IMG/VR virus record: IMGVR_UViG_3300042860_000755
Span: 1-59,275 of that record
Reading direction: 5' to 3' (one strand)
DNA from: a virus
Lineage: Duplodnaviria > Caudoviricetes
DNA: 59,275 nt
Shown here: one piece after another, positions 908-58,324 of the stretch
How positions within the stretch are numbered: the first letter of the stretch is position 1
How the letters are laid out: each line of letters opens with the position of its first letter
Program-made: the position numbers and the translations under genes
Notes under the pieces: model-generated
Database searches by the model: none
Told to the model about the DNA's origin: nothing
The model's input: the letters and a program-made list of their open reading frames with translations, nothing else

Positions 908-919
908 GCATTTAAACGC

Positions 920-948
920 TTGCACGGCACGTTTAAATCAGATATATT
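920..948 (+). promoter_or_regulatory. Sigma70-type promoter
   Basis: TTGCAC-17 bp-TATATT, with GTTTAAAT in the spacer and ATTTAAAC just upstream. Confidence 0.65.
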
Positions 949-954
949 GGCCTC

Positions 955-1035
955 ATTCCGGGGTTTCCGGCGTTTCTGACAGTCCCGGCTGACGACAAGC
1001 AGACAGAGCGCCCACAGTTAACTCGCTTGTGAGGA
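955..1035 (+). ncRNA. Structured RNA downstream of the gpT-like capsid gene (candidate Mu-gpT-DE motif)
   Basis: Crossing helices CCGGG/CCCGG, GGCGTTTCTG/CAGAGCGCC and ACAAGC/GCTTGT. Location fits the described Mu-gpT downstream element; not verified by covariance search. Confidence 0.55.
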
Positions 1036-1039
1036 TCAA

Positions 1040-1558
1040 ATGGCAAACACCACCTTCAACGGCCCAGTTCGGTCGCAAAACGGCTTTCAATCTATCACCA
1101 CCAACAGCACCACTGGCGCTGTTACTGTGAACGCCACTTTTGGCGCGGCCACCAGTGTGACCGACCTAACGACCACAAATTTGGTCTTTACCGACCAAAA
1201 CCACCCCACCACTGCCGCAATCAACGCTACGGCCACCGCCACCGCAGCAGAAGTTGCAACGGGTTACATCACCTCCACATCAGCGGCTCCAACGACCATT
1301 ACGCTGCCCACGGGCACGGCGCTTGGTGCCGCTATTGGTGCGGTCAGAGGTACCGTTCTTGACCTGTACGTGGACAACACTGCTGGCGCATCGACCGTGA
1401 CCATTGCTGTTGCTACCAACGGCATCTTGTCCAGCGCTGCTGCGGACACTCCCGGCTCGTTTGGCGACTTGACCATCGCATCTGGCGCTACTGGCCTTGC
1501 CCGGTTCACCATCATGTTCTCCAGTGCCACCGCCTACGTGTTTACCCGTACGGCTTAA
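1040..1558 (+). CDS. Putative virion structural protein (head decoration-like)
   Basis: GAGG RBS; Thr/Ala-rich beta-type protein directly after the capsid gene. Confidence 0.6.
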   Translation: MANTTFNGPVRSQNGFQSITTNSTTGAVTVNATFGAATSVTDLTTTNLVFTDQNHPTTAAINATATATAAEVATGYITSTSAAPTTITLPTGTALGAAIGAVRGTVLDLYVDNTAGASTVTIAVATNGILSSAAADTPGSFGDLTIASGATGLARFTIMFSSATAYVFTRTA

Positions 1559-1570
1559 TAGGAGCGCATC

Positions 1571-2071
1571 ATGACGATGCAGTATGACGTAAAGTCGAAA
1601 CACATGACCTCTTCGGGCGTGGCGGTAAACTACCGAACACGCCTCAAGGGGGCCGTTGTGTCGGCAAACACTAGTGCGGCGGCGCGGCACACGGTGTTTG
1701 CAAACAATGTGATGCAAACGGGCACTTACGGGCGGTCTACGACCACTGTGACGGTGACTATCACCAATCATGGCCTCACTACTGGGGACCGCGTTTGGTT
1801 GGACTTTTCTGCTGGCACAGGTGGTACGGCAACGGATAACATCTATTCGGTCACGGTTTCAGATGCCAATACGTTCACGGTAACGGACTCTGCCAGTGGC
1901 ACCATCACCGGGTCTCCTGCGGTGTCGATGTACGCTGACATTTTGATGGAAGCAGATTCGTACAACGCGACTGCGTTTCCTGTGGTGATTCCGGGCGAAG
2001 GAATTTTGGCCAAAGACGGTATTTTTGTTGGTTTGGTCGCAAACGTAACAACCACTTTGTTCTATGGCTAA
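1571..2071 (+). CDS. Putative virion protein with an inserted FCCH-like beta domain
   Basis: GGAG RBS; TVTVTITNHGLTTGDRV motif typical of FCCH-like inserts in phage structural proteins. Confidence 0.55.
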   Translation: MTMQYDVKSKHMTSSGVAVNYRTRLKGAVVSANTSAAARHTVFANNVMQTGTYGRSTTTVTVTITNHGLTTGDRVWLDFSAGTGGTATDNIYSVTVSDANTFTVTDSASGTITGSPAVSMYADILMEADSYNATAFPVVIPGEGILAKDGIFVGLVANVTTTLFYG

Positions 2072-2992: not shown

Positions 2993-3004
2993 TTGGAGGC
3001 CGAC

Positions 3005-4051
3005 ATGGCTAAAAGACGTATTCGCGCAGCAGAGCTTGCGGGTTTGGCCGCGCTTGGCGCTTTTGGTTACAACTTCTTTGGCCCAGGGCGCGACAAAAAG
3101 GCTGGGGAAAGACGTGCTGACGTAGAGTATCGAGGGACTGATCGTCCGCCCGCAGAAAGTGTTGCAGCCGCCCCAGCAGCCCCCGCAGTTTCGACGGCCC
3201 CACAAGCTCAAAGACCTGTGGCCAGCGTTGATGACGGCGACATTGGCCGGTTTGCGGATGTTGGGTCCAACTTTAACGAAACTGGACAACCGTACAATCC
3301 TGTTGGGTCGTCTGCCACTTATCGTCCGCGCCCTCGCCCTCCTTTTGTCGCCGACGATTCTCAGCGCAGGGCTAATGCCGCTGCTGATGCGATGTACGAA
3401 AATCGCGCGTCTGCTAATCGGCGCACCAGTGTTGATCCCACCACTCTAGAGGGATATGGTGTAAACGAAGTTGGTCGTGGCAGGGCTCCCGTCTCGCGTG
3501 TTAATGCAAGCGCCCGCCAATACAACCAAGACAGCCAAGGGAATCGAGCAGGAACTCAAGCTGATGGCGGCCCGCCAATCACAGAAGAAATGCGTCGAAA
3601 CCCAGTCGCAAGGATTCCCGGTCAAGATGCCAGGGCACCTGAAGATGGTCGTCGCGTGACTGGCGGCAATATCTCAAGGAATCTTGCAAATATGGCGGCT
3701 GCCCTTGGTCCAACCAGGGCTGCCGGATTTGGTAATGCCGCAGTTGAGGCCGCAACTGCAAGGGGTGCCCTTCAAAGGGCTGCTGCTGCACGGGCGGAGC
3801 GAACAGAAGCTGCTCGTCGCGGTCAAACGCCAACCAACCTCACGAGCACAAAATCAAGTTCAACCGCCAGGACGAACGAAGCCTCCAAGCGGACAAGAAA
3901 GTTTGACGAAGACTCTGAGAACGTTGAGTTTAAACGTGGCGGGAAGACAAAGGCCATGCCAAAGAAGATGGCTTCTGGCGGCATGTCGTCTGCATCCAAA
4001 CGCGCTGACGGCATTGCCTCCAAAGGCAAGACCAAGTGCAAAATGTACTAA
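3005..4051 (+). CDS. Hypothetical low-complexity protein with N-terminal hydrophobic stretch and C-terminal tag
   Basis: GGAGG RBS before ATG 3005; ends SASKRADGIASKGKTKCKMY. Confidence 0.6.
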   Translation: MAKRRIRAAELAGLAALGAFGYNFFGPGRDKKAGERRADVEYRGTDRPPAESVAAAPAAPAVSTAPQAQRPVASVDDGDIGRFADVGSNFNETGQPYNPVGSSATYRPRPRPPFVADDSQRRANAAADAMYENRASANRRTSVDPTTLEGYGVNEVGRGRAPVSRVNASARQYNQDSQGNRAGTQADGGPPITEEMRRNPVARIPGQDARAPEDGRRVTGGNISRNLANMAAALGPTRAAGFGNAAVEAATARGALQRAAAARAERTEAARRGQTPTNLTSTKSSSTARTNEASKRTRKFDEDSENVEFKRGGKTKAMPKKMASGGMSSASKRADGIASKGKTKCKMY

Positions 4052-4290: not shown

Positions 4291-4818
4291 ATGATGTCCA
4301 GCCGTGGCATGGGGGCCATCAACCCCAGCAAGATGCCCAAGAAGAAGGTCATCCATCGTAAGGATGACCCGAATACCGTGGACATGTACGCGGCTGGCGG
4401 CGAGGTGGAATCAAAATTTGAGCCGGTTAAACCAAACTATGGCATGAGAGCCATGGGTGGCTCTGGAGAGACTGGTTCCGGTGCTGGCGGACGGTTTACG
4501 GTTCAAAAAAATCTTGGCAAAGACCTTGACCTTGAGGCGTATCTGGAAGGTCAAGCGTTTAAACCAAAGGGTATGTCGCCTAAAGGTGAGATAACAGGTG
4601 GCGGAGTTAAATTGACCAAGAGGTTTGCCAAGGGTGGCAAGACAGAATCCAAGGTCAATCAGGCTGGTGTCTACACCAAGCCGGGTATGCGCAAGTCGCT
4701 GTTTGAGTCAATCAAGTCTCGGGCGGTGCAGGGCACAGGCGCAGGCCAATGGTCGGCCCGCAAGGCACAGTTATTGGCCAAGCAGTACAAAGCGAAAGGC
4801 GGTGGTTATCGTGGCTAA
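4291..4818 (+). CDS. Basic protein with an internal beta-strand cassette
   Basis: Conserved-looking ends (MSSRGMGAINPSK; GQWSARKAQLLAKQYKAKGGGY); cassette bounded by YAAGG and FAKGG. Confidence 0.6.
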   Translation: MMSSRGMGAINPSKMPKKKVIHRKDDPNTVDMYAAGGEVESKFEPVKPNYGMRAMGGSGETGSGAGGRFTVQKNLGKDLDLEAYLEGQAFKPKGMSPKGEITGGGVKLTKRFAKGGKTESKVNQAGVYTKPGMRKSLFESIKSRAVQGTGAGQWSARKAQLLAKQYKAKGGGYRG

Positions 4819-5326: not shown

Positions 5327-5556
5327 AAGACCCGCAGCAATCGCTCAAGGACTGGGGTGACCAGAAGTGGCGCACCAAGTCCGGCAAACCGTCTTCCAAG
5401 ACGGGGGAGCGATATCTGCCTGAGAAAGCCATCAAGGCTCTCAGCCCAGCCGAGTATGCCGCTACGACTCGTGCCAAGCGGGCAGGCAAGAAGGCCGGGA
5501 AGCAGTTTGTGAAGCAGCCGCCCAAAGTGGCGGCAAAGACAGCAAGGTATCGGTGA
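5323..5556 (+). CDS. Small basic conserved phage protein
   Basis: QQSLKDWGDQKWRTKSGKPS...ERYLP; ATGA coupling to the upstream gene. Confidence 0.7.
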   Translation: MKDPQQSLKDWGDQKWRTKSGKPSSKTGERYLPEKAIKALSPAEYAATTRAKRAGKKAGKQFVKQPPKVAAKTARYR

Positions 5557-6491
5557 TGGCTACCACATCCGGCGCAAGCAGTTTTAACCTTGACCTGACC
5601 GAGTTGGTCGAGGAGGCGTTTGAACGCGCCGGTTCAGAGTTGCGCACGGGCTATGACCTCAAAACTGCCCGACGCAGTTTAAACATCATGTTTGCCGATT
5701 GGGCGAACCGTGGCATCAACCTCTGGACGATTGAGCAGGGCACGATTGACCTTGTGCCGGGGCAGAACACCTACGCTTTGCCGACCGACACGATTGATCT
5801 TCTGGAGCATGTGATCCGCACTGGGGCCAACGTGGCAGCAACTCAGGCAGACCTGACCATCACCCGGATCAGTGTTTCCACCTACGCCACGCTGCCCAAC
5901 AAGCTCCAGCAGGCCCGACCGATCCAAGTCTGGGTCCAGCGGTACAACGGCCAGCAGAGCCCGACCGGCCTGTCCATCAGCGGCGGTGGAATCAGTGCCA
6001 CCGTCAATCAGATTACCCTCAACTCTGTGGTTGGCCTGCCCGCCACGGGGTTTATCAAGGTTGACTCTGAAATCATCAACTACGGATACATCTTAGGGAA
6101 TACCCTATACAACTGCTTCCGGGGTCAGGCCGACACCACAGCCGCATCCCACGCCAACGGGGCAGCGGTTTACTGGCAGCAGCTTCCTGCTGTCACGGTC
6201 TGGCCAACGCCGGACAACGCCCAGCAGTATCAGTTCGTGTACTGGCGTCTGCGCAGAACGCAGGATGCTGGTGGCGGTGTAAACGTCATGGATGTTCCCT
6301 TCCGGTTCATCCCGTGCATGGCGGCTGGCTTGTCCTATTACATCGCCGGGAAAATCCCTGGCGGCATGGAGCGACTGCCCATGCTGAAGGCCCAGTATGA
6401 CGAGGCTTGGCAGTTGGCCGCCGATGAAGATCGTGAGAAGGCTGCGATTCGGTTCGTGCCCCGCCAGCAGTTCATTGGGAGCACTTACTGA
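5556..6491 (+). CDS. Putative head-tail adaptor protein
   Basis: EEAFERAG...ARRSLNIMFADWANRGINLWT and later V(T)VWPTPD pattern of podovirus adaptors; morphogenesis cluster; TGATG coupling. Confidence 0.6.
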   Translation: MATTSGASSFNLDLTELVEEAFERAGSELRTGYDLKTARRSLNIMFADWANRGINLWTIEQGTIDLVPGQNTYALPTDTIDLLEHVIRTGANVAATQADLTITRISVSTYATLPNKLQQARPIQVWVQRYNGQQSPTGLSISGGGISATVNQITLNSVVGLPATGFIKVDSEIINYGYILGNTLYNCFRGQADTTAASHANGAAVYWQQLPAVTVWPTPDNAQQYQFVYWRLRRTQDAGGGVNVMDVPFRFIPCMAAGLSYYIAGKIPGGMERLPMLKAQYDEAWQLAADEDREKAAIRFVPRQQFIGSTY

Positions 6492-6913
6492 TGGGCAACA
6501 GGTTTGCCAGTGGTAAGTATGCGATTGCTCAGTGTGACCGCTGCGATCAGCGGTACATGCTTTCGCAACTTCGTCGTGAGGTCGTCAAAACCAAGAACTA
6601 CGAACTGCTGGTGTGCCCGGAATGTTGGGACCCGGATCAGCCGCAGTTGCAGTTAGGCATGTACCCGGTGGATGACCCGCAGGGTTTGAGGAATCCTCGT
6701 CCAGACCGCAGCTACAGGCTTTCTGGGACCAGCGGATTGCAGGTTGAGGTGGGCTCGGGTCCATTGGGTACTGGAACGGTAGAGGGCGGGAGTCGCATAT
6801 TTCAATGGGGATGGAACCCAGTTGGTGGTTCTTCATTTTTCACCGCAAACGAAACGCCAAACAACTTGGTGTTGTCGGTGAATTTGGGTACAGTTACAGT
6901 TGCAACGACATAA
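6491..6913 (+). CDS. Zn-ribbon protein
   Basis: CDRC...CPEC motifs; DPQGLRNPRPD. Confidence 0.6.
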   Translation: MGNRFASGKYAIAQCDRCDQRYMLSQLRREVVKTKNYELLVCPECWDPDQPQLQLGMYPVDDPQGLRNPRPDRSYRLSGTSGLQVEVGSGPLGTGTVEGGSRIFQWGWNPVGGSSFFTANETPNNLVLSVNLGTVTVATT

Positions 6914-6923
6914 GGAGTCGATC

Positions 6924-7091
6924 ATGATGGACGCAAAGAAGGCAGTGCATAAGCACGAAAAGGCCATGCACCCCGGCAAACCCATGACCAAGATGCGTGC
7001 TGGTGGCAAGACCAACAGCGACATGCTCAAGATGGGCCGCAATATGGCCAAGATTGCCAACCAGAAGTCCCCTGGCCGCAAAGGAGCCTAA
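6924..7091 (+). CDS. Small basic protein
   Basis: AGGAG RBS; contains MRAGG. Confidence 0.55.
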   Translation: MMDAKKAVHKHEKAMHPGKPMTKMRAGGKTNSDMLKMGRNMAKIANQKSPGRKGA

Positions 7092-7092
7092 G

Positions 7093-7293
7093 ATGGCTAC
7101 GTACAAACAACCTACAAAAGTAGCATCGGTTGTGGTAGGTGAAGAACCCGCCAAGACGACCATGCGCAAGGCCAATGTGGCTGTGGCCAACACCCGCAGT
7201 CAAGACTACCCGCCGATGAAAACCAGCGGCATCAAGATTCGCGGCACTGGCTGTGCAACTAAAGGTGTGATGGCTAGGGGTCCGATGGCATGA
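7093..7293 (+). CDS. Small basic protein
   Basis: AGGAG RBS; ends KIRGTGCATKGVMARGPMA, which resembles the shared tag. Confidence 0.55.
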   Translation: MATYKQPTKVASVVVGEEPAKTTMRKANVAVANTRSQDYPPMKTSGIKIRGTGCATKGVMARGPMA

Positions 7294-7997
7294 ACTACGC
7301 TGCCCTGTCTGCTGCAATTCAGGACTACACCCAGAACTACGAAACGGAGTTCGTGGCGAATATCCCTGTCTTCGTCAAACAGGCAGAGCAGCGCATCTAC
7401 AACACGGTTCAGTTCCCGTCGCTGCGCAAGAACGTCACAGGCTCGACTTCGACGAACAACAAGTACTTGGCGTGTCCTGGCGATTTTTTGGCCGCTTACT
7501 CTATGGCGGTTGTGACGGGCGTTACGGGCGGCAACATCAATACCGGCTCGTACGAGTACTTGCTCAACAAGGATGTGAACTTCATCCGGCAGGCATACCC
7601 AACGCCAAATGACACCGGGGTTCCCAAGTACTACGCGCTGTTTGGGCCGACGGTATCGGGCACGACGATCTCCGATGAGCTGTCTTTCATCCTTGGTCCG
7701 ACCCCAGACGGCGTGTACTATGTTGAGCTGCACTACTATTACTACCCGGAATCAATCGTTACGGCGAGCACTTCTTGGCTGGGCGACAACTTCGATTCAG
7801 TTTTGCTCTACGGCTCTCTGGTCGAAGCGTACACGTTCATGAAGGGTGAGGCCGACATGATGGCTTTGTATGACGGCAAGTACAAGGAAGCCCTCATGCT
7901 GGCCAAACGTCTGGGCGATGGCCTTGAGCGCAGCGATGCATACCGCAGTGGTCAGTACCGCACACCCCCGCTGCCGCAGAATAATGGGGTGGCATGA
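7290..7997 (+). CDS. Putative adaptor / tail tubular protein
   Basis: FVKQAEQRI, GVPKYYA, LGPTPD, LLYGSLVEA motifs of phage adaptor proteins. Confidence 0.65.
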   Translation: MNYAALSAAIQDYTQNYETEFVANIPVFVKQAEQRIYNTVQFPSLRKNVTGSTSTNNKYLACPGDFLAAYSMAVVTGVTGGNINTGSYEYLLNKDVNFIRQAYPTPNDTGVPKYYALFGPTVSGTTISDELSFILGPTPDGVYYVELHYYYYPESIVTASTSWLGDNFDSVLLYGSLVEAYTFMKGEADMMALYDGKYKEALMLAKRLGDGLERSDAYRSGQYRTPPLPQNNGVA

Positions 7998-8419
7998 TGG
8001 CGCTCACTGGCAATTATTCCTGCAACACGCTGCGGTCTGGCCTTGCCAACGGCACGATCAACTTTGCCACCGACACGTTCTATTTGGCGCTGTACACCAA
8101 CTCCGCCACGCTAGATCAGACCACCACGGCATACACAACGATTGGTGAAGCCTCTGGTGGCGATTATGTTGCCGGTGGTTTGGTGGTGACGGCCACCGTT
8201 GCAAGCCAAGAAACGGCAAGCGGCAGCACCACGTACGTCAATTTCTCGTCCCCCGCATGGACGGGGAACATCACGGCTCGCGGCGCGTTGATCTACACTC
8301 CCGGCGACAACGGTGCGGTGTGTGTTCTTGACTTTGGCTCAGACAAAACGTCTATCGTTTCTTTCACCGTACAGATGCCTGCCAACACCAGCACATCTGC
8401 TCTCATCCGACTTGTTTAA
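7994..8419 (+). CDS. Tail-associated structural protein
   Basis: DTFYLALY...ITARGALIY...VLDFGSDK pattern; position in the cluster. Confidence 0.55.
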   Translation: MMALTGNYSCNTLRSGLANGTINFATDTFYLALYTNSATLDQTTTAYTTIGEASGGDYVAGGLVVTATVASQETASGSTTYVNFSSPAWTGNITARGALIYTPGDNGAVCVLDFGSDKTSIVSFTVQMPANTSTSALIRLV

Positions 8420-8429
8420 GGAGTATCCC

Positions 8430-9008
8430 ATGTCGAACGAAATCGTAAAATCTGTTGATACCATGAGCGCCGGTCTGGTGGCAGGCACCCGTTCTGGCGA
8501 AGAGATGATGGCTCTGGGCCGCTTCAAAGTTCAGTGCTTTGACAAAGACGGCAACCTCAAGTGGGAAGATGAAAACCACAACCTCGTGGTAAACGTGGGT
8601 TTGCAGTACATGTGCGGCACGGCCCTGACCAGCGTGACTCAGATCACGACTTGGTACATCGGCCTGTACGGCGCTGGCGCATCCAACACCCCCGCTGCTG
8701 GTGACACGATGGCTTCCCACGCCGGATGGACTGAAGTTGTCCCGTACAGCAACGCCAACCGCCCGACCTGCACCTTTGCAACCGCAACGACGGCCAACCC
8801 GTCTGTGGCCACCAACTCCGCTTCTGTCGCGGTGTTTAACATCAATGCCACCCAAACTGTGGGCGGTGCGTTCTTGACCAGCGACAACACCAAGAGCGGC
8901 TCGACTGGTACGCTGTTTTCCGCAGCGGATTTCTCCGCCCCCGGTGACCGGGCCGTCACATCGGGCGACACATTGAATGTATCGTACTCGTTGTCACTTG
9001 CAGGTTAA
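8430..9008 (+). CDS. Tail-associated structural protein
   Basis: AAGGAG RBS; NLVVNVG, WYIGL, GTLFSAADF, GDTLNVSY. Confidence 0.55.
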   Translation: MSNEIVKSVDTMSAGLVAGTRSGEEMMALGRFKVQCFDKDGNLKWEDENHNLVVNVGLQYMCGTALTSVTQITTWYIGLYGAGASNTPAAGDTMASHAGWTEVVPYSNANRPTCTFATATTANPSVATNSASVAVFNINATQTVGGAFLTSDNTKSGSTGTLFSAADFSAPGDRAVTSGDTLNVSYSLSLAG

Positions 9009-9019
9009 AGGGGTCGTCG

Positions 9020-9205
9020 ATGATCAAAATCGACTTTGAATTCCAAACCCCCCACGGTAAGTTTGCTGATGCTTTGCATCTGCCTGATGATCACACCTTC
9101 ACGGATGCTGAGATTGAGGCGATGAAGCAGCAGCGTGTGGACAACTGGATTGCTGTGGTGACTGCTCCTCCTGCGGAAGAAGTGCCTCCAACTGAGGGGG
9201 TGTAA
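9020..9205 (+). CDS. Small protein preceding the tail fibre
   Basis: Clean 61-aa ORF in the operon. Confidence 0.55.
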   Translation: MIKIDFEFQTPHGKFADALHLPDDHTFTDAEIEAMKQQRVDNWIAVVTAPPAEEVPPTEGV

Positions 9206-9207
9206 CC

Positions 9208-17352: not shown

Positions 17353-17355
17353 ATC

Positions 17356-46031: not shown

Positions 46032-46289
46032 ATGAAAAACGAACAATTCACAAGCGTTGCTGAAGCCATCATTGATGCAGCGCACATCCTTGCCAACAAC
46101 AGGGCCACCACGCCAGAGGGCGCAACGATGGGTGGCCTTGAGCTTCATGGCATGACCATCGCAACGTCAAATGAGCGTATCGCGCAGGCCATTGATGGAC
46201 TCGCTGCCCAGTTTGAAGAGTTGGCCCATCAAATGAGCCGCATCGCAGATGTCATCGAGGGAGACCAAAATGCGCGACTACAAGGCTGA
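46032..46289 (+). CDS. Hypothetical protein
   Basis: Helical 85-aa ORF. Confidence 0.5.
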   Translation: MKNEQFTSVAEAIIDAAHILANNRATTPEGATMGGLELHGMTIATSNERIAQAIDGLAAQFEELAHQMSRIADVIEGDQNARLQG

Positions 46290-46518
46290 ATACCAGAACT
46301 ATGACGGCACCCCCGCAGTCAAGAAGAAGCGGGCGCAGAGAAACAAGGCCCGCAGGATGCTGGAGAGAGAGGGAGTCGTCACCAAAGGCGACGGCAAGGA
46401 TGTGGATCACATCACCCCTCTCGGGAAGGGTGGTAAGACTACCCGCAGCAACTTGCGCGTCAAGTCCGCCACCGCCAACAGATCGTTTAAACGGAAATCT
46501 GATGGCAGCCAAAAATGA
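46270..46518 (+). CDS. Small HNH endonuclease-like protein
   Basis: GDGKDVDHITPL.KGG...NLRV...NRS. Confidence 0.75.
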   Translation: MRDYKAEYQNYDGTPAVKKKRAQRNKARRMLEREGVVTKGDGKDVDHITPLGKGGKTTRSNLRVKSATANRSFKRKSDGSQK

Positions 46519-48770: not shown

Positions 48771-48784
48771 CTCATCTCTCCGGT

Positions 48785-49018
48785 TTAAACGCGCCGCGCA
48801 TAGTTGACTGCGCTGCGCAGGTTGTTGAATGTATTGGCCCTCAGTGGGCCGTCTGTCGTCTTGATGTAGACCGAGAATGCCAGCCCATCAAAGGCGATGT
48901 ATCGCTCCCCGTGGCCCAGGTATCGCTCATCATCGACTAGGTCAACGATGCCGTCGAGGGCGTATGCTTGTTTTAAAAACACGGGGTGCCGGTTTGTCAC
49001 TGCTCTGATGGTTCTCAT
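48785..49018 (-). CDS. Hypothetical protein
   Basis: ATGA-coupled to the vWA gene. Confidence 0.55.
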   Translation of the reverse strand: MRTIRAVTNRHPVFLKQAYALDGIVDLVDDERYLGHGERYIAFDGLAFSVYIKTTDGPLRANTFNNLRSAVNYARRV

Positions 49019-50589
49019 GCGGCCAGCTTGATCTGCTTGAACGACACTGTGCCCAGGTCGCCAACGTCAGTGATCCGCACCGACTGCGGGTAGACATTTG
49101 CAACGTCCTGCTCGATGCCGATGCCGATGGTGGTGATCCCCAGGTTATTGCCTGCCAAGCATTGCTGCCGCACTGCCATAGGCTTGCCGATGCCATCGGT
49201 GATGACAAAGCAAATCTTGCGCTGCTCGGGCCGACTGAGCAGCAGCTTGTGGGCATACCGCACCGCAAAGTAGTCGTTGGTTGACCCGCCGTTGCAAATG
49301 CTGTTGATCTTTGCCGCAGCCTTGAGCGAGTGTTCTCCCCAGGGCTTGACCACTGAAGTGAACGAACCAAAGGCAAGGACGCAGGTCTCGACCTGGGCCT
49401 TTTGCAAAGTATCCAGCAGCGCCCGGGTTGCCATAGCAGCCTGGACGATGCGGTTGCTCATGTCGTACCTTTTATTTTTCTTGCCGTCATCAAACATCGA
49501 GCCCGAAACATCGAGACAGATCACCACCGCAGAGTCGATCCCCTCGACCGCATGGCGGCGCTGGAACAGCTTGTCAGTGGTGCCGATCTTGTGCAGGGCC
49601 GAGACATTGATGGAGCCAGACCGACGGTTGCGCTGGAAGTCCTCGCGCCCAGAGTTGTCGAACAGGCGCTTGACCTCATACCGCAGCCGCGCAGGCACCG
49701 CCAGTTGATCGTTGAGCCAGTGATGCCGCAGGTGATGATTAGGCTCAGTCAGCGTGGCATTCTCAGACCATCCCCCGATGCCAGCCTTGCCCTCGGGCAT
49801 ATTGATGGAGGGTTCGACCTCGACTGCCTCGTCAGATTTTTTAGGAGCCCGAGCAGAGCCGGGGCTTTTGTGCGGGTTGTCGTCGAGCCTGGAGCCCTTA
49901 TCGGCCTTGCCTGCACCCTCACCCTTGCCGTCATCAGATGGAGCCTCTGAGGGGCTTTTGGGAGCCTTGGCGGGGCTGTTTTTGGGCAGAGCCTGGAGTT
50001 GATCCATGATCCACTCAGCCAGGGCCAGCGTGTCCTTGGATGAGCGGCAGGCATCAATCCGCTGAGTCGCGCCGATGATGACGGGCTCCAGGCCAGCAGG
50101 CACCGGGACATGGGTGTTCAGATGCCGCCGCAGGTAGACCGCGAAGATAAACGGGTATTGAGCAGGGTCTGCCCAATCAGTCACCGTGGCATTGGCCTCG
50201 CCAACGATCTGATCCAGCAGCGCCGTCAGCAGCCCATCGATGTTGCCGGTCAGCTTGGCATCGATCCCGGTGTGCTCGATCCATGCATCCTCGACCGCAT
50301 TGTGCAGTTGGTTGACGTACTGGTCACCATGATTGACGTTGAAGTTGGTATATTTTTGATGCAGCAGTTCATGTACCACAAACCCGACATAGCGCTGAAC
50401 GTCAATGTCGTAAAGCACTGCATCATCAGCAACGTCAGCGAAGTAAATGTCGCCGTCCTTGTTGGTGCCTGCGGTCTGAATGCCTGCATGCCAGTTGATG
50501 GTTCTGATGGCTGCACCAAACTCGGCTGCAACCTTGCGCGTCAAATTTTCAACTGCCTGTTTAAACTGGAACCCGTGATAGCGTTTCAT
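49015..50589 (-). CDS. CobT-like vWA protein with N-terminal HExxH domain
   Basis: VHELLH...NAVED; MIDAS DVSGS, GGST, VITDG. Confidence 0.8.
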   Translation of the reverse strand: MKRYHGFQFKQAVENLTRKVAAEFGAAIRTINWHAGIQTAGTNKDGDIYFADVADDAVLYDIDVQRYVGFVVHELLHQKYTNFNVNHGDQYVNQLHNAVEDAWIEHTGIDAKLTGNIDGLLTALLDQIVGEANATVTDWADPAQYPFIFAVYLRRHLNTHVPVPAGLEPVIIGATQRIDACRSSKDTLALAEWIMDQLQALPKNSPAKAPKSPSEAPSDDGKGEGAGKADKGSRLDDNPHKSPGSARAPKKSDEAVEVEPSINMPEGKAGIGGWSENATLTEPNHHLRHHWLNDQLAVPARLRYEVKRLFDNSGREDFQRNRRSGSINVSALHKIGTTDKLFQRRHAVEGIDSAVVICLDVSGSMFDDGKKNKRYDMSNRIVQAAMATRALLDTLQKAQVETCVLAFGSFTSVVKPWGEHSLKAAAKINSICNGGSTNDYFAVRYAHKLLLSRPEQRKICFVITDGIGKPMAVRQQCLAGNNLGITTIGIGIEQDVANVYPQSVRITDVGDLGTVSFKQIKLAA

Positions 50590-50597: not shown

Positions 50598-52034
50598 TCA
50601 AATGTTGTCGTTGAAAAAGTCAATGTTGATGCAGGCATCGAAGATGCCCATCAGCGTGGCGTGAGATTCGACGGGTTGCCGAGCAACGACAGTGGTCGTC
50701 CAAGCCTCACGCAGGGGCAGCACTTGTATTGCCCTGGCAAAGGCAATCGCCGAGCGAATCGAGGGTGCGTCCACAATGTCGGCACTCTTGACCTTGTGCC
50801 GTGCAACCTCGATGGCGTGGTGGATAGCCATGGCGATAGCCTTGTTGCAGCCAGCGCGGCGGGTGATAGCCTCGATCTCAGAGTCCTTTGGCAGGTAGTC
50901 AAACTGGATCACCCGAGAGAAACGATCCACCAGGGCACTGTTCTGCATCCGGGTGCCGGCGTGTCTACCACTGTCGTCACCATTGCCAAAGGTGTTATCG
51001 GCAACGAAAACCAGCACCCCCTCGGCGCGGGTATGGGTAAGACCACCAAACGATACGGCGGCGTTGGGCTCCAGAAAACCATTCAGCGTTGCCAGTTCGC
51101 CAGGGTCAGCGTTGGTGACCTCATCCAGCAGGATGACGGTCGAGGGCATGGCATAGGCCAGCAAAAAGTCTTTTGGCTGGAACACCGTCTTGTTGTTCTC
51201 AAAGCCAGTCGCTCCGACATACTCTTCGACGGTTGTGTGCTTGTGGAAGTTGATGCGTTTAAACCCGCGTCCGGTACGGGCTGCAAACTGTCGGGCAGTC
51301 TCAGACTTGCCGGTGCCCTTCTCGCCGCCAAACCAAAGGTTCTCGCCCGTCCAATCAGATAGCAGCAGGTGCTTGAGAATGCCCTCAGTCCAGATGAAAT
51401 CGGGGTCTACCGCCGGGGCTTGGGGGTGGTTCCACAGGTCAACCATCAGCGGCTGACCCTTAACATCGAAAACATCGATGCCGAAAACCTCAAGGCAGGT
51501 CTTGCTGCTGGTGCGGTGCGCGGCGGTCTGGTCGGCCACAACCTGTTGGGCACCCGCATCCTCGATGCGTTTAGACCAGCGTGAAAAATGGTCGCCGATT
51601 ATTGCGTCCACTGCTACCTTAATGCTACGGTCATCAATCTTGATGCCTTTGATCTTGTCGGTCAGTGTGTTGGCCTTGTGCTCGACGCGAGCCATTGTCT
51701 GGATCACTGCGCTGATGTTAGCCTGGAGGTCATCGACCCGATTGAGGGCCGACAGGGCATCGGCTTTGGCATCAGATGCAACCTGCGAGGCGGCATCAAC
51801 CTTGGCACCGATGGCGGGGTCAAAGGTCGGCGCGGCCTTGAAGACCGATGGGGTTGCGGCCATGATGTTGTTCATGCTGATGGTTCCAGCATCGACCGCC
51901 TCGGCCAGCCAGCGGCTTGCATCGGTCTTGGTTATCCCGGCCTGTGGGTTGGGGTGGTATTGGTTATAGGCACCTGCCACAACGGGCAGGGGCAGACGGG
52001 CGATCTGGATGACGATCTGGGAGAGGTTTGCCAT
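50598..52034 (-). CDS. MoxR/CobS/CbbQ-like AAA+ ATPase
   Basis: Walker A GEKGTGKS, Walker B ILLDE, ALVDRF, PSIR. Confidence 0.85.
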   Translation of the reverse strand: MANLSQIVIQIARLPLPVVAGAYNQYHPNPQAGITKTDASRWLAEAVDAGTISMNNIMAATPSVFKAAPTFDPAIGAKVDAASQVASDAKADALSALNRVDDLQANISAVIQTMARVEHKANTLTDKIKGIKIDDRSIKVAVDAIIGDHFSRWSKRIEDAGAQQVVADQTAAHRTSSKTCLEVFGIDVFDVKGQPLMVDLWNHPQAPAVDPDFIWTEGILKHLLLSDWTGENLWFGGEKGTGKSETARQFAARTGRGFKRINFHKHTTVEEYVGATGFENNKTVFQPKDFLLAYAMPSTVILLDEVTNADPGELATLNGFLEPNAAVSFGGLTHTRAEGVLVFVADNTFGNGDDSGRHAGTRMQNSALVDRFSRVIQFDYLPKDSEIEAITRRAGCNKAIAMAIHHAIEVARHKVKSADIVDAPSIRSAIAFARAIQVLPLREAWTTTVVARQPVESHATLMGIFDACINIDFFNDNI

Positions 52035-53291: not shown

Positions 53292-53306
53292 GGTTCGTTC
53301 TCCGGT

Positions 53307-53486
53307 TTAAACGTTGTTGATGATGGTCAGGACGGTGTAAACGCGAACACCGCGCCGAGCCAATTGCTTGGCGTCATGGGTGATGCCGATCTTGGCCCCG
53401 CGCAGAGTCTTGTATTGCTTGCCCGTCTCGGCCCACAAGTAGCCGAGTTGGTTGCGAATCAGGGTCACTGATTGGGTCTTATGCAT
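53307..53486 (-). CDS. Hypothetical early protein (59 aa, not in ORF track)
   Basis: MHKTQSV...YKTLRGAKIGIT; TGATG coupling. Confidence 0.55.
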   Translation of the reverse strand: MHKTQSVTLIRNQLGYLWAETGKQYKTLRGAKIGITHDAKQLARRGVRVYTVLTIINNV

Positions 53487-54361: not shown

Positions 54362-54390
54362 ACTGTAGCGGGTTTAAACCAGCCTGTCAA
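54362..54390 (-). promoter_or_regulatory. Leftward (early) sigma70 promoter
   Basis: Minus strand TTGACA-17 bp-TACAGT with GTTTAAAC in the spacer. Confidence 0.7.
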
Positions 54391-54419
54391 CAACCCCACG
54401 ATTTAGTCGGGTATTAGAC

Positions 54420-54445
54420 CCGCAAGGGGTTGCCGCAAGGGGTTG
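54420..54445. repeat. 13-bp tandem repeat
   Basis: CCGCAAGGGGTTG x2. Confidence 0.8.
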
Positions 54446-54582
54446 CGGTTGGCATATATATGTGGCCCAAGGATTCAAGGAATGGGTTACAGGGCGCTGG
54501 AAGGGGTTCAGGCGGGGTAGGTATCAACCAGACCAATACGGCGGCAGGAAGGCATGGTTGCAATGAAAAAGTTTTACTTTAG

Positions 54583-54787
54583 TTATCCACAATGGTGTGG
54601 ACAAGTCAAAGTTATCCACAGCCTGTGGACAAGTTTTGTAGTACTTGAGTATTGCAACCAGGGTTTAAACGGGCGATCGTGGCCTGGGTAAGGGGTAGGG
54701 TAGGGTAAGTGGTTTTTGACGCGAAACTTACAACTTCTGTGGATAAGTTGTGGATGACGGTTGGAGTTATTCACAGCCTGTGGATAA
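54583..54787. promoter_or_regulatory. Cluster of eight DnaA boxes
   Basis: TTATCCACA 54583, 54612; TGTGGATAA 54738, 54779; TTATTCACA 54767; TGTGGACAA 54596, 54624; TGTGGATGA 54749. Confidence 0.85.
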
Positions 54788-54844
54788 CCTGATAGACTGC
54801 GATGCGAACGGTGGTTCAGGTTTAAACGGTGAAGGGGTGATGCG

Positions 54845-55540
54845 ATGGGCATGGGGAATGATCAGATGCGGGGCAATGGCAGGGCGACAAAAGATGATCT
54901 ACTGCGAAGGCTGGAGGAAGTGATGCTCGATGGTGATGGAAACCAGAACGATCAAGAGCCCGGACTGAGCGAAGCGGAGCGGTTAGCCAGAGACGCAGTT
55001 CCCCCAAAGCGTAGGGTAGACGGAGAGATGGTCGGAACACCCAGAGCAAAGCCAATGACAAGCTCCATGATGGAGTTCGCCAAAGGGCTTATAGAGGGAA
55101 AGACACAGTTAGAGGCGTACCAGAACGCATACCCCAATGGGAAGGCAACAGATAGGACACTGAAGACAGCAGCATGGAAGCTAGCGCAAGACCCAAGGAT
55201 ACAAAGGATGCTGCAAGAGCATTGGGGTCAGACAGTGGAAGCGCTGACGGATGATGCAGTGGCGGTGAAACGATATGTGATCAAGTCGCTGCTGGAGTTG
55301 AGCAAAGAAGCAAAGCAGGAGGGCTCCAAACTCAAGGCACTGGAGTTGATGGGCAAGACAGTGGGAATGTTTAAACAGACTGTGCAAGAGGATGACGACA
55401 GTGTGACCGCAGACCAACTGAAGCAAGAGCTTGCGAAGCACATGCGTCTAGTGGGCAATGTGCGTAGAGTGAGCAAGGCGCAGATCATTGAACTGCCCTC
55501 TACGGTCATCAGTGAGCCGGTGGAGCGAGGACAGGTTTAA
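54845..55540 (+). CDS. Terminase small subunit (start uncertain)
   Basis: FAKGLIEGKTQLEAYQNAY...AAWKL..PRI HTH and KLKALELMGKTVGMF; upstream of TerL. Confidence 0.75.
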   Translation: MGMGNDQMRGNGRATKDDLLRRLEEVMLDGDGNQNDQEPGLSEAERLARDAVPPKRRVDGEMVGTPRAKPMTSSMMEFAKGLIEGKTQLEAYQNAYPNGKATDRTLKTAAWKLAQDPRIQRMLQEHWGQTVEALTDDAVAVKRYVIKSLLELSKEAKQEGSKLKALELMGKTVGMFKQTVQEDDDSVTADQLKQELAKHMRLVGNVRRVSKAQIIELPSTVISEPVERGQV

Positions 55541-55735
55541 ACGGGGGAGTGGCATCAGTGATGGCTGGGAGGGAGGGAGAGACACCCCCACCCCCCGCTT
55601 TGGCAGATGGGTCCCCCTCCTCGCCTTACGCTCGATTCCACTCATCCGATCATCCCCAAACACAAACGTTCGCACCCACCCCCATCCATTTCCAATTCCC
55701 AACCCCCACCCCTATATATTTTTGAAATTACTGAC

Positions 55736-55779
55736 TTGCAAACGTTCGCTATTGTGTTTAAACTTTGTTTGGTTTAAAC
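55736..55779 (+). promoter_or_regulatory. Putative sigma70 promoter with two GTTTAAAC sites
   Basis: TTGCAA-17 bp-TAAACT; GTTTAAAC at 55756 overlapping the -10 and at 55772. Confidence 0.55.
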
Positions 55780-55794
55780 GCGGATTGTTTAAGG

Positions 55795-55986
55795 ATGATT
55801 GATTACGCCCACCCCACGATGATGGCTGAGAAGGCTTTGAGGGAGCTTCATGAGGCGATGCTTGCTCGCAGGTTTGAGGATGCGCGTCAGGCGGCTTTGC
55901 GGTGCATGGTTGAGTGCAAGATTGCGTACCACAGCATTCGGGTGATGGAAGAGGAATATGTCAGCAAAGCATCAACTCGTGCTTGA
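55795..55986 (+). CDS. Hypothetical protein
   Basis: MIDYAHPTMMAEKAL; helical. Confidence 0.55.
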   Translation: MIDYAHPTMMAEKALRELHEAMLARRFEDARQAALRCMVECKIAYHSIRVMEEEYVSKASTRA

Positions 55987-56188
55987 TTTCATCCGGGCGT
56001 ACATTCGGCTTCATGGGATGTCTCCTTCTTACCAGACGATTGCTTCTGGTGTGGGGATGAAGTCAAAGGCGAATATTCACCGGATCATCCATAAGTTGCA
56101 GGATGAGGGGCTTTTGACTATTCGCCCCTACAAGTTCAATTCGATCAAGTTGATTGACCGCAGTGCTCGTGAGGTGTCTGCTCTATGA
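55958..56188 (+). CDS. LexA-like winged-helix DNA-binding domain protein (no peptidase domain)
   Basis: VLDFIRAYIRLHGMSPSYQTIASGVGMKSKANIHRIIHKLQDEG. Confidence 0.75.
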   Translation: MSAKHQLVLDFIRAYIRLHGMSPSYQTIASGVGMKSKANIHRIIHKLQDEGLLTIRPYKFNSIKLIDRSAREVSAL

Positions 56189-57693
56189 CGTTGCTGACCC
56201 GGCAGGAGATTGATGACTATGAGGGGATGATTCCTCTGGTTGGGCTGGAGCAGCGCAGGAAGATACAGAAGCTTTTGGAGTTGGACAAGCGGGAGAGGTG
56301 CCGGGAGTCCTTCATCTTCTTCGTGTCGCAGATGTGGCCTGTGTTTATTTCGGGCAAGCATCATCAGATCATGGCTGATGCTTTTGAGAGGGTGGCCAGG
56401 GGTGAGTTGAAGAGGTTGATCATCAACATGCCGCCCCGGCATACGAAGTCGGAGTTTGCTTCTTACCTGCTCCCGGCTTGGTTTCTTGGGATGTTTCCTG
56501 AGAAGAAGATCATCCAGACCGCCCACACCGCAGAATTGGCTGTTGGTTTTGGCCGGAAGGTGAGGAACTTGGTCTCGTCCAACGAGTACCAGAAGGTCTT
56601 TCAGACGGAACTTTCTTCTGATTCCAAGGCTGCGGGGCGGTGGAATACCTCTGTTGGGGGTGATTACTTCGCCATCGGTGTTGGCGGTGCTGTCACGGGT
56701 AAGGGCGCTGATCTTTTGATCATTGACGACCCGCATTCTGAGCAGGAAGCCAAGCAAAACAACCCCGCCGTCTACCACGGGGTCTATGAATGGTACACAT
56801 CCGGCCCCCGGCAGCGTCTTCAGCCTGGGGGTTCAATCATTATTGTGATGACGCGGTGGTCAAAAATAGATTTGACCGGCCAAGTCATGAAAAATTCGGA
56901 AAAAGACGGCACAGATGCGTGGGAAGTCATCGAATTTCCCGCAATTTTGCCCTCCGGAACCCCTCTTTGGCCCGGATTTTGGAAAAAAGAGGAGCTTGAA
57001 GCCATCAGGGCTGAGATTCCAGTGTCCAAATGGAATGCTCAGTACCAACAAAACCCCACATCCGAAGAAGGCGCTATCGTCAAGCGCGAGCAATGGCAAA
57101 TTTGGGAGTCAGAAATGCCCCCGCCATGCGAATACATCATCCAGTCCTGGGATACAGCCTTTGAAAAACACAACCGCGCAGACTACTCTGCATGTACTAC
57201 GTGGGGAGTGTTTAAACATCCCGATTCCAAGGGCAACTACAAGACAAACATCATCCTTCTTGACGCCTTCAAGGACCGAATGGAGTTTCCTGAACTCAAG
57301 GCCAAGGCCATTGAGATGTACAAGGAGTGGAACCCAGACACCCTGATCGTTGAAAAGAGGGCCGCTGGTGCCCCTTTGATCTACGAGCTTCGCCAAACCG
57401 GCATCCCTCTTTCAGAGTACACACCAAGCAAGGGACAGGATAAGATTGCGCGTGTAAACGCAATTTCAGACCTGTTTGCGTCTGGCGTGGTCTGGTGTCC
57501 AGATACCCGCTGGGCCGATGAACTCATGGAAGAGATGGCCGCGTTCCCTAATGGCGACCATGATGACTTGGTTGACTCGGCGTCACAGGCTCTTTTGAGG
57601 TTCAGGCAGGGCGGATTCATCCCAATCGACTCGGATGAGCCCGAAGAGACGATTTATTTTCGCGGTCGCAAAGATCGCTTCTATACCGTGTGA
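56185..57693 (+). CDS. Terminase large subunit
   Basis: INMPPRHTKS, LLIIDDP, MTRW, AQYQQNP, QSWDTA, HDDLVD. Confidence 0.95.
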   Translation: MTLLTRQEIDDYEGMIPLVGLEQRRKIQKLLELDKRERCRESFIFFVSQMWPVFISGKHHQIMADAFERVARGELKRLIINMPPRHTKSEFASYLLPAWFLGMFPEKKIIQTAHTAELAVGFGRKVRNLVSSNEYQKVFQTELSSDSKAAGRWNTSVGGDYFAIGVGGAVTGKGADLLIIDDPHSEQEAKQNNPAVYHGVYEWYTSGPRQRLQPGGSIIIVMTRWSKIDLTGQVMKNSEKDGTDAWEVIEFPAILPSGTPLWPGFWKKEELEAIRAEIPVSKWNAQYQQNPTSEEGAIVKREQWQIWESEMPPPCEYIIQSWDTAFEKHNRADYSACTTWGVFKHPDSKGNYKTNIILLDAFKDRMEFPELKAKAIEMYKEWNPDTLIVEKRAAGAPLIYELRQTGIPLSEYTPSKGQDKIARVNAISDLFASGVVWCPDTRWADELMEEMAAFPNGDHDDLVDSASQALLRFRQGGFIPIDSDEPEETIYFRGRKDRFYTV

Positions 57694-57700
57694 GGAATAG

Positions 57701-58324
57701 ATGGATTACGACACGATTTTGAAAGCTGTTGGAGAGGAGCCGGAGTATTTGTTCCGCACTTCGCGGGGGTCTGCCTATGGTCATTACCCCGACAGCAGCA
57801 CGGTGCGCAACAGGTCGGGAGAAGGCCATAAAGACACAACCACCGGCCTGCAACCCCGTTCTGGCAAAACCGTTTACATGAGCCCGCAGGATGTAAACCG
57901 GATGGCAGGGATGTTCCAAAACGCGGAACTTGCGACGCAGTTTAAACCGTCGTCTTTCAACAAAGAGACGAAGAGCGGCACTGCGGCACTGACCTACGCG
58001 CAAGACTACGGCCCAAAAAAAGCGGGCACCGTCATTCATGAGGCGCAGTTCACCACAGTCCCCAGGAAGGGGCTAATCCCAGTTGAGATTAACCGCAGCG
58101 AAAGCCCAATAGGCGATTCTGGTCGAGGCATACATTGGGGGACTCCAATCACAGAAGTTGTGCCTAGAGGTGGCATGGGACGGGGTGTAGTTGGAACTCC
58201 GGCCCAGATGGGCGGCGGCGCTGGAAGCACCATACGCGCTTTAAACCTACAGAAATTAATGGCTGCTGGCGGCGCTGTAAAGATGCCCGATTCCTACAGC
58301 CAGGGTGGCTGGAAACTTATTTAA
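57701..58324 (+). CDS. Hypothetical protein between TerL and portal
   Basis: GAGG RBS; ends MAAGGAVKMPDSYSQGGWKLI. Confidence 0.6.
   Translation: MDYDTILKAVGEEPEYLFRTSRGSAYGHYPDSSTVRNRSGEGHKDTTTGLQPRSGKTVYMSPQDVNRMAGMFQNAELATQFKPSSFNKETKSGTAALTYAQDYGPKKAGTVIHEAQFTTVPRKGLIPVEINRSESPIGDSGRGIHWGTPITEVVPRGGMGRGVVGTPAQMGGGAGSTIRALNLQKLMAAGGAVKMPDSYSQGGWKLI

Follow-up and report, generated by a model that had tools for sequence, protein, structure and literature searches.

A palindromic octamer, GTTTAAAC, is enriched genome-wide in a clade of lake-water phages

Phages avoid restriction targets, and the selected, hyperabundant words described to date come from cells (HIP1, uptake sequences and Chi) and, as asymmetric intergenic words, from one temperate mycobacteriophage group. 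The uptake signal sequences and DNA uptake sequences (USS/DUS) and Chi are short and asymmetric, occur about once per kb under a pressure of the "more is better" kind, belong to the cell and are read by cellular machines. HIP1, the word GCGATCGC of cyanobacterial chromosomes, is presented in the available text of one description as a hyperabundant palindromic octamer that is conserved beyond codon usage, keeps its one-mismatch variants, has no general link to promoters and is rarer in highly expressed genes (PMC5861425). A repair model for HIP1 invokes 5-methylcytosine and GmeC-dependent mismatch repair; a term search of the available text of that article (Elhai 2015, PMC4390886) returned no mention of TTTAAA, of phage or of GTTTAAAC, the 8-bp palindrome that concerns us here. 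The stoperators of Cluster A mycobacteriophages, which are sites of the L5 repressor, number more than 20 copies and have a phage-encoded helix-turn-helix (HTH) reader; as far as the available text goes, they are 13-mers without symmetry, each bound by a monomer, and they keep to short intergenic spaces, where they follow the direction of transcription (PMC9283540). We analyzed GTTTAAAC in the IMG/VR virus record IMGVR_UViG_3300042860_000755, whose 59,275 bases (estimated completeness 97%, gene content of a tailed phage) we refer to in full as the window. A literature search that covered neither supplementary files nor most subscription journals found no description of this word in phages. What sets the present case apart is a clade of lake-water phages that carries an exact palindrome of the restriction type as often as once per kb, in coding sequence and against codon preference.

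A preliminary description of the window, made by eye, had reported at least 29 exact copies of GTTTAAAC, about 14 variants of the form RTTTAAAY and a G+C content near 55%, at which roughly one copy would be expected. Systematic counting bears this out. All 29 exact copies stand at exactly the coordinates it had listed, 14 other sites match RTTTAAAY (at 910, 931, 23733, 25081, 27587, 32134, 35518, 41115, 41951, 42561, 43095, 45674, 47702 and 48500), the measured G+C content is 54.1%, and dinucleotide-preserving shuffles of the window (n = 100) hold 0.64 copies on average (standard deviation 0.72, maximum 3), with none of the 100 reaching 29. GTTTAAAC is the most numerous 8-mer of the window, at a density of 489 per Mb. 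The 1120 8-mers of the same base composition average 0.47 copies per strand, the next independent word having 5; an order-3 Markov model expects 2.18 copies; and the word read backward, CAAATTTG, occurs twice. The expectation of a maximal-order Markov model (27.96) was set aside as uninformative because the sub-word counts from which it is built stem from GTTTAAAC itself. The genome can loosely be said to have purged most other palindromes, the count being that 16 of the 64 hexamer palindromes are at zero copies with 12-23 expected of each. This is the usual signature of restriction avoidance, against which an enriched palindrome stands out. The hexamer palindromes in excess in the window are TTTAAA (53), TTGCAA (36), TGATCA (33) and TGGCCA (30).

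The excess could in principle be a by-product, without function, of composition, codon use or dipeptide content: there is nothing out of the ordinary about the codon pairs TTT AAA and TTA AAC, and the excess extends to the TTTAAA core (53 copies against 8.7 expected). The shuffles, the Markov model and the words of equal composition all speak against this, as do the flanks of the core, which are G..C in 29 of the 53 cases where 3.9 are expected (binomial P 1.5e-19). Codon choice points the same way. When synonymous codons were shuffled within called genes (200 shuffles), the 18 copies observed in the window compared with a mean of 1.25 and a maximum of 7, and two relatives gave 30 against 2.1 and 7 against 0.44. 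Pooled over five genomes, Phe-Lys pairs in a G..C context are written TTT-AAA in 49 of 61 instances, where codon usage predicts 24.6%, and the remainder comprises 2 and 2 single mismatches and 8 double mismatches; Leu-Asn after xGT is written TTA-AAC in 44 of 51 instances, where 6.9% is predicted. The excess therefore persists under control for TTTAAA and for codon choice, the two factors that the preliminary description had named as a test of it. Together with the conservation of the sites and the absence of the word from OR003939, a close outgroup of similar G+C content with 0 copies, these tests leave the by-product account barely conceivable. The excess of GTTTAAAC is real and is selected at the level of the DNA; it is not a codon artefact.

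The enrichment is a trait of a phage clade. A search with the terminase recovered 369 relatives in IMG/VR, of which the best 80 loci (79-100% identity, 759 kb) contain 421 copies (5.5 per 10 kb). Seeding another terminase search with a divergent member extended the enriched group to about 68% terminase identity and a G+C fraction of 0.39, so that enriched relatives span about 68-100% identity in the large terminase (TerL), G+C fractions of 0.39-0.58 and densities of up to about 1 copy per kb. Full genomes of the GTTTAAAC type, the window included, carry 21 to 49 copies each. Counts for individual relatives are 49 in 63.5 kb (G001), 21 in 58.4 kb (G002), 23 in 63.4 kb (G003), 35 in 64.0 kb (G004), 49 in 64.1 kb (G414), 28 in 32.8 kb (G413), 20 in 17.5 kb (G415) and 17 in 16.6 kb (G417). 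IMG/VR was also scanned blindly for two copies within 32 bases; of the 80 loci examined, 16 have at least 5 copies, and 14 of the 16 encode proteins of the window's clade, the remaining two being an AT-rich record and a short fragment. The named phages closest by terminase are just 48-59% identical (023Pt_psg01, DSL-LC04, the Pelagibacter phages HTVC027P and HTVC023P, and Planktothrix/Synechococcus phages of the Pag-Yong1 group), and five named isolates were not enriched: 023Pt_psg01 (36.5% G+C) has 3 copies, HTVC027P has 1, and DSL-LC04, Pag-Yong1 and Ssp-JY39 have 0.

Individual sites are conserved about three times as well as background 8-mers. In aligned blocks of 70-75% identity 31 of 86 sites are kept (background 11.5%), at 80-85% identity 19 of 27 (27%) and at 85-90% identity 12 of 12 (40%). 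Turnover is nonetheless visible at 55369-55376, within the small terminase (TerS) gene, where the relatives form the series GTTCCAGC, GTTCCAAC, GTTCAAAC, GTTTAAAC. At 57210-57217, in TerL, the window encodes V-F-K-H; the site is found in 32 of 80 relatives and the others have CTTCCAAC (F-Q). The residue there is Lys with the site and Gln (TTC CAA) in many of the relatives without it, and the word has therefore altered protein sequence. The view that GTTTAAAC is a selected DNA word, raised in the preliminary description, is thus borne out by the codon-level tests, by conservation above background and by sharing across the clade.

The form of the word is sharply defined. In 408 unique contexts the flanks are uninformative outside the 8-mer save for a pyrimidine at -1 and, by symmetry, a purine after it, giving YGTTTAAACR as the fuller word. 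When eight genomes or fragments were pooled (375 kb), 222 exact copies were found where composition predicts 5.4, a 41-fold excess. Changes at positions 2 and 7 are not tolerated (0.6-1.2x); at the outer positions A is the best tolerated (ATTTAAAC, 5.6x), at position 3 only G is (GTGTAAAC, 7.4x), and the double variant GTGTACAC is not in excess (4 against 5.7). This pattern fits one strong and one weaker half-site under a symmetric dimer. HutC/GntR-type degeneracy, for which we take GTNTANAC to be the consensus, was rejected: tolerance is confined to G at position 3 of one half, none of the remaining 13 combinations exceeding about 2x expectation. The non-palindromic variants show no bias with respect to the gene strand (8 same and 13 opposite in G005; 6 same and 7 opposite in the window), which argues that the word is read as duplex and against a promoter, terminator, stoperator or RNA signal. 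An RNA-level signal, including the U_UUA_AAC slippery heptamer that the frame xGT TTA AAC would supply, was also rejected, because the sites are found in every frame and either orientation and some of them lie in non-coding DNA. In addition, GTGTAAAC may fall into polarity domains in the window and in G001-G004: one orientation prevails in the stretch that begins near the origin and reaches about 13 kb beyond the start of the terminase, and the opposite one prevails elsewhere, with G002 as an exception. The pattern is suggestive, but these sites are probably shared by descent.

The resemblance to stoperators accordingly has limits. Like them, as the available text of their description (PMC9283540) presents them, GTTTAAAC occurs in many copies of one word over a phage genome, at promoters and elsewhere, and the stoperator reader is a phage-encoded HTH protein. 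Unlike them, it is an 8-bp palindrome with 83 of 157 sites deep in genes, and its asymmetric variants are free of gene-strand bias.

One sublineage has lost the perfect palindrome. In G005, G416 (L238, L239) and L024-L032 the one-base variant ATTTAAAC stands at places homologous to sites of the window. G416 has 0 copies of GTTTAAAC in 27 kb, together with 22 of ATTTAAAC/GTTTAAAT and 8 of ATTTAAAT, where half-sites combining independently at their observed frequencies would predict about 4 palindromes. The simplest reading is that one weakened half is tolerated and that this lineage is under a specific pressure against the exact palindrome, a pressure that a host restriction enzyme with an 8-bp target could exert. 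We take GTTTAAAC to be the specificity of PmeI, and hence a Type II restriction-modification target. It is like such a target in being the same exact 8-bp palindrome with almost no flanking information, and the ATTTAAAC sublineage has purged it as restriction pressure predicts; it is unlike one in being the commonest 8-mer of the window, with depletion confined to that sublineage (G416). The word also makes a practical marker, because PmeI would cut the genomes of the clade into a dense ladder.

Sites are concentrated in one part of the genome. In each of the six full genomes, density is highest along a stretch that starts at the origin, TerS and TerL, takes in the replication module and extends into the gene for a polyvalent protein, and the virion-structure block is nearly free of sites. 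For 157 sites in five genomes, the share deep in called genes is 53% (83), where 76% is expected; sites no more than 30 nt from a gene boundary make up 20% (against 9.5%) and those in uncalled DNA 27% (against 14%). The window follows this arrangement. On its left, three sites lie in rightward open reading frames (ORFs), at 3928-3935 (ORF 2993-4051, +; frame xxG TTT AAA Cxx), 4557-4564 (ORF 4291-4818, +) and 5677-5684 (a tail-like ORF, 5553-6491, +; frame xGT TTA AAC); none occurs from 5685 to 22897, and the next, at 22898-22905, is intergenic and starts 27 nt upstream of an ATG at 22925. Six are in the polyvalent-protein ORF (27593-36730), at 29263-29270, 30306-30313, 31785-31792, 32905-32912 (one relative has ATTTAAAC at the matching place), 33607-33614 and 36091-36098. 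This gene thus has 6 exact and 3 variant sites, in contrast to the remaining late genes.

Farther right, sites lie at 40149-40156 in a zinc-ribbon ORF (40071-40301, -), 43999-44006 in the RusA ORF (kept in 4 of 4 aligned relatives), 46485-46492 in a small HNH ORF (46249-46518, +), and 47053-47060 and 47387-47394 in the primase-helicase ORF (46515-48194), the latter kept in 0 of 9 aligned relatives. Two follow at 50559-50566, near the 5' end of the CobT-like ORF on the minus strand (3 of 3 keep it), and at 51257-51264 in the AAA_5 ORF, also on the minus strand (12 of 16). The site at 57940-57947 is in ORF 57701-58324 and is kept in 5 of 5. The overlaps with stop codons that had been pointed out earlier hold at the level of the ORFs: 48783-48790 overlaps the stop codon of ORF 48785-49018 (-), 53305-53312 that of ORF 53307-53486 (-) and 55535-55542 that of TerS (GTT TAA), three exact sites thereby reusing a TAA stop codon, and the variants at 42561 and 48500 also overlap stop codons.

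The densest stretch has seven sites in 1.4 kb (54372 to 55772), around the TerS gene and the start of the TerL operon. A cluster of eight DnaA boxes (TTATCCACA with at most one mismatch), in two groups of four, spans 205 bp at 54583-54787 and accounts for 8 of the 12 matches in the window. It is presumed, from the boxes, to be a DnaA-dependent origin, and G001-G005 have a DnaA cluster likewise placed between the AAA_5 gene and the TerS and winged-helix genes. One GTTTAAAC site (54663-54670) splits the two groups and two more flank the cluster; the site at 54820-54827 starts 33 nt past the last box and ends 17 nt before the TerS ATG (54845), and is kept in 6 of 7 relatives. Clustering at an origin is the sole likeness to ParB-parS systems, whose sites are 16-bp palindromes near the origin: GTTTAAAC is 8 bp, and the protein scans found no ParB family.

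The best conserved site, 55756-55763 (14 of 14 aligned relatives), supplies the -10 element of a conserved late, or packaging, promoter on the plus strand, TTGCAA-N17-TAAACT at 55736-55764, which precedes an operon of a small ORF, a winged-helix protein, TerL and the portal. Of 81 loci or genomes, 57 show the pattern TTGC[GA]AACGTTC-N7-[GA]TTTAAAC when it is applied strictly and 66 when it is relaxed. A further site of the window stands 16 nt downstream of 55756, at 55772-55779, and in many relatives a second one lies directly upstream of the -35 element. Among the unique 260-nt regions upstream of the winged-helix gene, 46 of 60 have an exact site and most others a variant; neighboring sites are most commonly 31 bp apart (8 of 53 unique pairs). 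A C-rich tract followed by an GGGGGTATATATATTTT-like element, at about 55690-55725 and some 40 nt upstream of the late promoter, recurs in almost every relative shown and might serve as a pac, UP-like or promoter element.

The association with promoters that had been proposed holds only in part, at about three places: 55756; 44378-44385, an intergenic site 7 nt upstream of the -35 element (44393) of a promoter-like match, TTGACA-17-TATCCT; and 54372-54379, in the spacer of a leftward promoter-like match, TTGACA-17-TACAGT (54390-54362). The promoters that had been suggested at 920 and 22868 fall under the scan threshold. In none of three scans did promoter-like matches exceed those in shuffled sequence, and the fixed -35 distance and orientation expected of a sigma-70 promoter were found at the one conserved late promoter only. 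GTTTAAAC as a general promoter element was thus rejected, there being no TTG -35 signal beyond the late promoter, no orientation bias and no matches above shuffles.

Altogether these observations lead us to favor, tentatively and at slightly less than an even chance, the explanation that GTTTAAAC is the genome-wide, high-affinity site of a clade-specific, phage-encoded, symmetric (dimeric) DNA-binding protein, with a LexA-like winged-helix protein (wHTH) as its likeliest reader. A sequence-specific protein of twofold symmetry, encoded by the phage rather than the host, would bind YGTTTAAACR with high affinity as double-stranded DNA. Weak, persistent selection for more sites would fill most of the positions that the code permits, even at the price of changed amino acids. 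Sites lie in the early, replication and packaging half, around the origin, on the -10 of the late promoter and often upstream of its -35, a distribution from which we infer that the protein probably couples replication, late transcription and/or packaging genome-wide rather than acting at one operator. Among the functions listed in the preliminary description, a site for a regulator or a genome-wide protein fits best; a modification mark finds no support in gene content, the analogy with HIP1 stands for the word's behavior and falls for membership, and the link to promoters stands for about three sites, but 53% of the 157 sites are deep in coding sequence.

The wHTH protein (76 aa; 55958-56188, +) matches PF01726 (2.4e-9), and its stop codon overlaps the TerL start. 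Its predicted structure (pLDDT 84) superposes on the N-terminal DNA-binding domain of LexA (3jsp, 3jso) with a TM score of 0.83, a root-mean-square deviation of 1.1-1.3 Å and 28-29% identity. In the first set, 78 loci or genomes encode it, a profile search found none in the non-enriched outgroups, and the putative recognition helix SK(A/S)NIHRI is unchanged even at 49% overall identity. Where the helix has His at position 45, at least one site is found in 64 of 71 regions of 1.5 kb upstream of TerL. The outer base of the word varies together with residue 40 of the helix: the 67 regions with Ile have 2.93 GTTTAAAC and 0.24 ATTTAAAC per 1.5 kb, the 10 with Val 0.80 and 1.70, and the 4 with Met 0.5 and 1.0. 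The relatives with Met40 or Lys45 helices are L289, L297 and L302. The eight terminase relatives at 65-71% identity, all of which lack the wHTH gene, have neither word in this region. The change from Ile40 to Val may belong to the same adjustment as the loss of the palindrome in the ATTTAAAC sublineage. We also note that L317 (71% terminase identity), with the helix SRSNVHMMIA, has no TTTAAA in 12 kb and instead has 13 copies of another 8-bp palindrome, GCATATGC; between 2330 and 9206 most of these take the form AACGCATATGCGTT, and they stand close to or at the 5' ends of early ORFs that run leftward. L317 looks like a parallel system with a different word.

Several points weigh against this explanation. 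LexA boxes have 4-bp halves about 8 bp apart, and a LexA-type fold normally reads half-sites about 12 bp apart and not abutting 4-bp halves. The wHTH candidate folds as the LexA DNA-binding domain, but at 76 aa it has no cleavage or dimerization domain, and the halves of GTTTAAAC abut in a word spread genome-wide. The few-copies-at-promoters part of a LexA-type operator is better matched by another palindrome, GAACGTTC, which occurs in 1 to 4 copies per genome at two promoter regions, those of the late operon and of the exonuclease and RusA genes. In the window it stands at 43797-43804, in the divergent region between the exonuclease and RusA genes, at 55665-55672 and at 55741-55748; two of the three copies are AAACGTTC, one of which overlaps the -35 and spacer of the late promoter. 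GAACGTTC resembles a classical operator, and it may be this palindrome that the wHTH protein really targets. The helix of L126, SKSGIFRY, is divergent, yet 11 sites remain in 12.9 kb; the counts by residue 40 ignore shared ancestry; and an ordinary operator does not usually come close to filling the positions that the codons permit, a state that would also fit a mutational or repair drive. The CobT-like, AAA_5, SprT-like and TerS genes travel with the wHTH gene, and phylogenetic profiling failed to single out a reader because the whole early module co-occurs with GTTTAAAC. Finally, a host reader is excluded only for the genomes sampled.

Other products of the window might read the word in place of the wHTH protein. 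These include a ribbon-helix-helix-like protein of 131 aa (40261-40656, -; RHH_3, 0.0026), whose candidacy is weakened in that divergent members remain enriched although they do not conserve the strand predicted to face the DNA; the 76-aa zinc-ribbon protein (40071-40301, -; Phage_zn_bind_3, 1.3e-5); and the TerS candidate (54845-55540, +; phrog_51, 5.8e-10). A 101-aa protein (41523-41828, -) was dropped as a reader, being similar to single-strand-binding (SSB) proteins and having an acidic tail.

The favored explanation can be extended to a fuller scenario, unlikely as a whole, in which a lytic freshwater phage clade distributes 20 to 50 copies of a "self" word over the half of its genome given to early functions, replication and packaging. 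A stand-alone LexA-like wHTH protein, translationally coupled to TerL, would read this word and tie together origin firing, the late promoter and packaging; word and helix would co-evolve (Ile40 with GTTTAAAC, Val40 with ATTTAAAC, another helix with GCATATGC); and rare-cutter enzymes in some hosts would purge the palindrome from one lineage. The clade offers a tractable system for asking how a virus affords and uses a genome-wide word, how word and reader co-evolve and how restriction pressure reshapes a word.

The sites near the terminase genes raise another explanation, in which TerS and TerL use GTTTAAAC as pac-like entry sites, or the HNH protein nicks it, so that more sites mean more starts of packaging or recombination. 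The seven sites in 1.4 kb at the TerS gene and the start of the TerL operon are as this predicts, as are the arrays of roughly 31-bp spacing upstream of the wHTH-TerL operon and the presence of TerS and HNH in the enriched genomes that cover those regions. Pressure for more sites would account for near-saturation, and the phage encodes recombination functions of its own (Sak, exonuclease and RusA). However, TerS identity does not follow the word, being 28-36% in strongly enriched divergent members against 47-57% in relatives that lack the word near TerL, and gene conversion would tend to remove cut sites, not add them. We regard this explanation as distinctly unlikely.

A drive of the HIP1 kind is improbable in our estimation. 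A host or an unrecognized phage methyltransferase would mark GTTTAAAC, and methylation-linked repair or selection would create and keep the palindromes. Like HIP1, GTTTAAAC is a hyperabundant palindromic octamer of coding and non-coding DNA that is conserved beyond codons and keeps its one-mismatch variants; it is likewise not tied to promoters in general and is less frequent in genes that are highly expressed. Its statistics here match the behavior reported for HIP1 in the available text of that description (PMC5861425), its one-off forms are depleted relative to the exact word among Phe-Lys pairs in a G..C context, and its specificity is as sharp as that of an enzyme. Unlike HIP1, it is A/T-rich and belongs to a phage clade rather than to a cellular chromosome. 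Pfam and PHROG scans of the window proteins, which left some small ORFs aside, found no methyltransferase family, and the amino-methyltransferase motif [DNS]PP[YFWH] is absent from every ORF of the set, so that gene content lends no support to the modification mark suggested in the preliminary description. By our reasoning, repair of 5-methylcytosine could drive only the outer C of the word and not its six A/T positions. Two candidate host bins and 401 Burkholderiales genomes are not enriched, and a sublineage in which ATTTAAAC occurs without the palindrome is not what a methyltransferase drive specific for that palindrome would produce. As to the marks of a HIP1-type word, over-representation and conservation were found, and an orphan methyltransferase and residence in a cellular chromosome were not. 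GTTTAAAC is therefore like HIP1 in its statistics and like stoperators as a phage-wide protein site, and lacks defining features of both.

The reader could also be a host machine, GTTTAAAC being either a Chi-like signal for a recombination nuclease or the site of a host nucleoid or replication protein. In keeping with a protective signal of many copies, the word is frequent, insensitive to orientation and tolerated in genes, and its sites flank DnaA boxes of host type. It resembles USS/DUS and Chi in occurring about once per 1-2 kb, in genes where the code allows and with a likely dose-type advantage; it differs from them in being palindromic, phage-specific and not enriched in the bacteria sampled. 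A profile of the clade's terminase matched two short contigs in bacterial genome bins labeled Saprospiraceae and Burkholderiales, which we take to be binned phage fragments and weak hints of the host. In these two bins (about 3 Mb each) GTTTAAAC has 45 and 68 copies, against 163 and 110 of the reversed control word. An even sample of 401 Burkholderiales genomes, four of them unpublished, gave at most 109 copies and at most about 41 per Mb, and among all 403 sampled bacterial genomes none is enriched and most have fewer copies than of the control word. A word of the host was thus not supported in the two bins and the 401 genomes. The word is the same over relatives with G+C fractions of 0.39 to 0.58, which probably have different hosts, and this argues for a reader that travels with the phage; the five named related isolates, with 0 to 3 copies, add to the case against a host reader.

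A moderate excess in two unrelated IMG/VR records has also to be weighed for a host machine. G007 (L226), a record of 48 kb, has 11 copies of GTTTAAAC, three of them in direct tandem at 1886-1909, and G008 has 6. No proteins were found in common between the window and either record, and by a Poisson estimate these excesses are about what chance may yield in a collection of 2.9 million contigs. We hold a host machine to be improbable too, and part of the probability goes to none of the explanations considered. As for the host itself, a search of genome contigs with the primase-helicase gave no match and tRNA genes gave no hint; the -35/-10 promoter and the DnaA boxes suggest that it may be a proteobacterium.

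The rest of the window is that of a phage found in lakes: 24 lake-water metagenome runs, all represented by assembled contigs, contain most of a 10-kb stretch of it, and no RNA data set is listed among those that do. TerL lies at 56185-57693 and the portal gene starts at 58334. The late genes run rightward in one long block that encodes tail-fibre proteins, a 1970-aa ORF, an ejection protein and the 3045-aa polyvalent protein (27593-36730, +), which has ART-PolyVal and LPD38 domains. The early region, with genes on both strands, encodes a Sak annealing protein, a PD-(D/E)XK exonuclease, RusA (43835-44284), the small HNH protein (46249-46518, +), a T7-gp4-like primase-helicase (46515-48194), the CobT-like and AAA_5 pair (49015-50589 and 50598-52034, both -) and an SprT-like protein. 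The scans of the window proteins gave no match to a DNA polymerase family. The 101-aa protein at 41523-41828 adjoins the Sak gene; it has an acidic tail ending in DGSDLPF and a weak match to an SSB PHROG, and is probably a small phage single-strand-binding protein. Near the left end there is a strong terminator-like hairpin at 878-902, with 7 G-C pairs among its 10, and the ATTTAAAC/GTTTAAAT pair (910 and 931) follows directly downstream.

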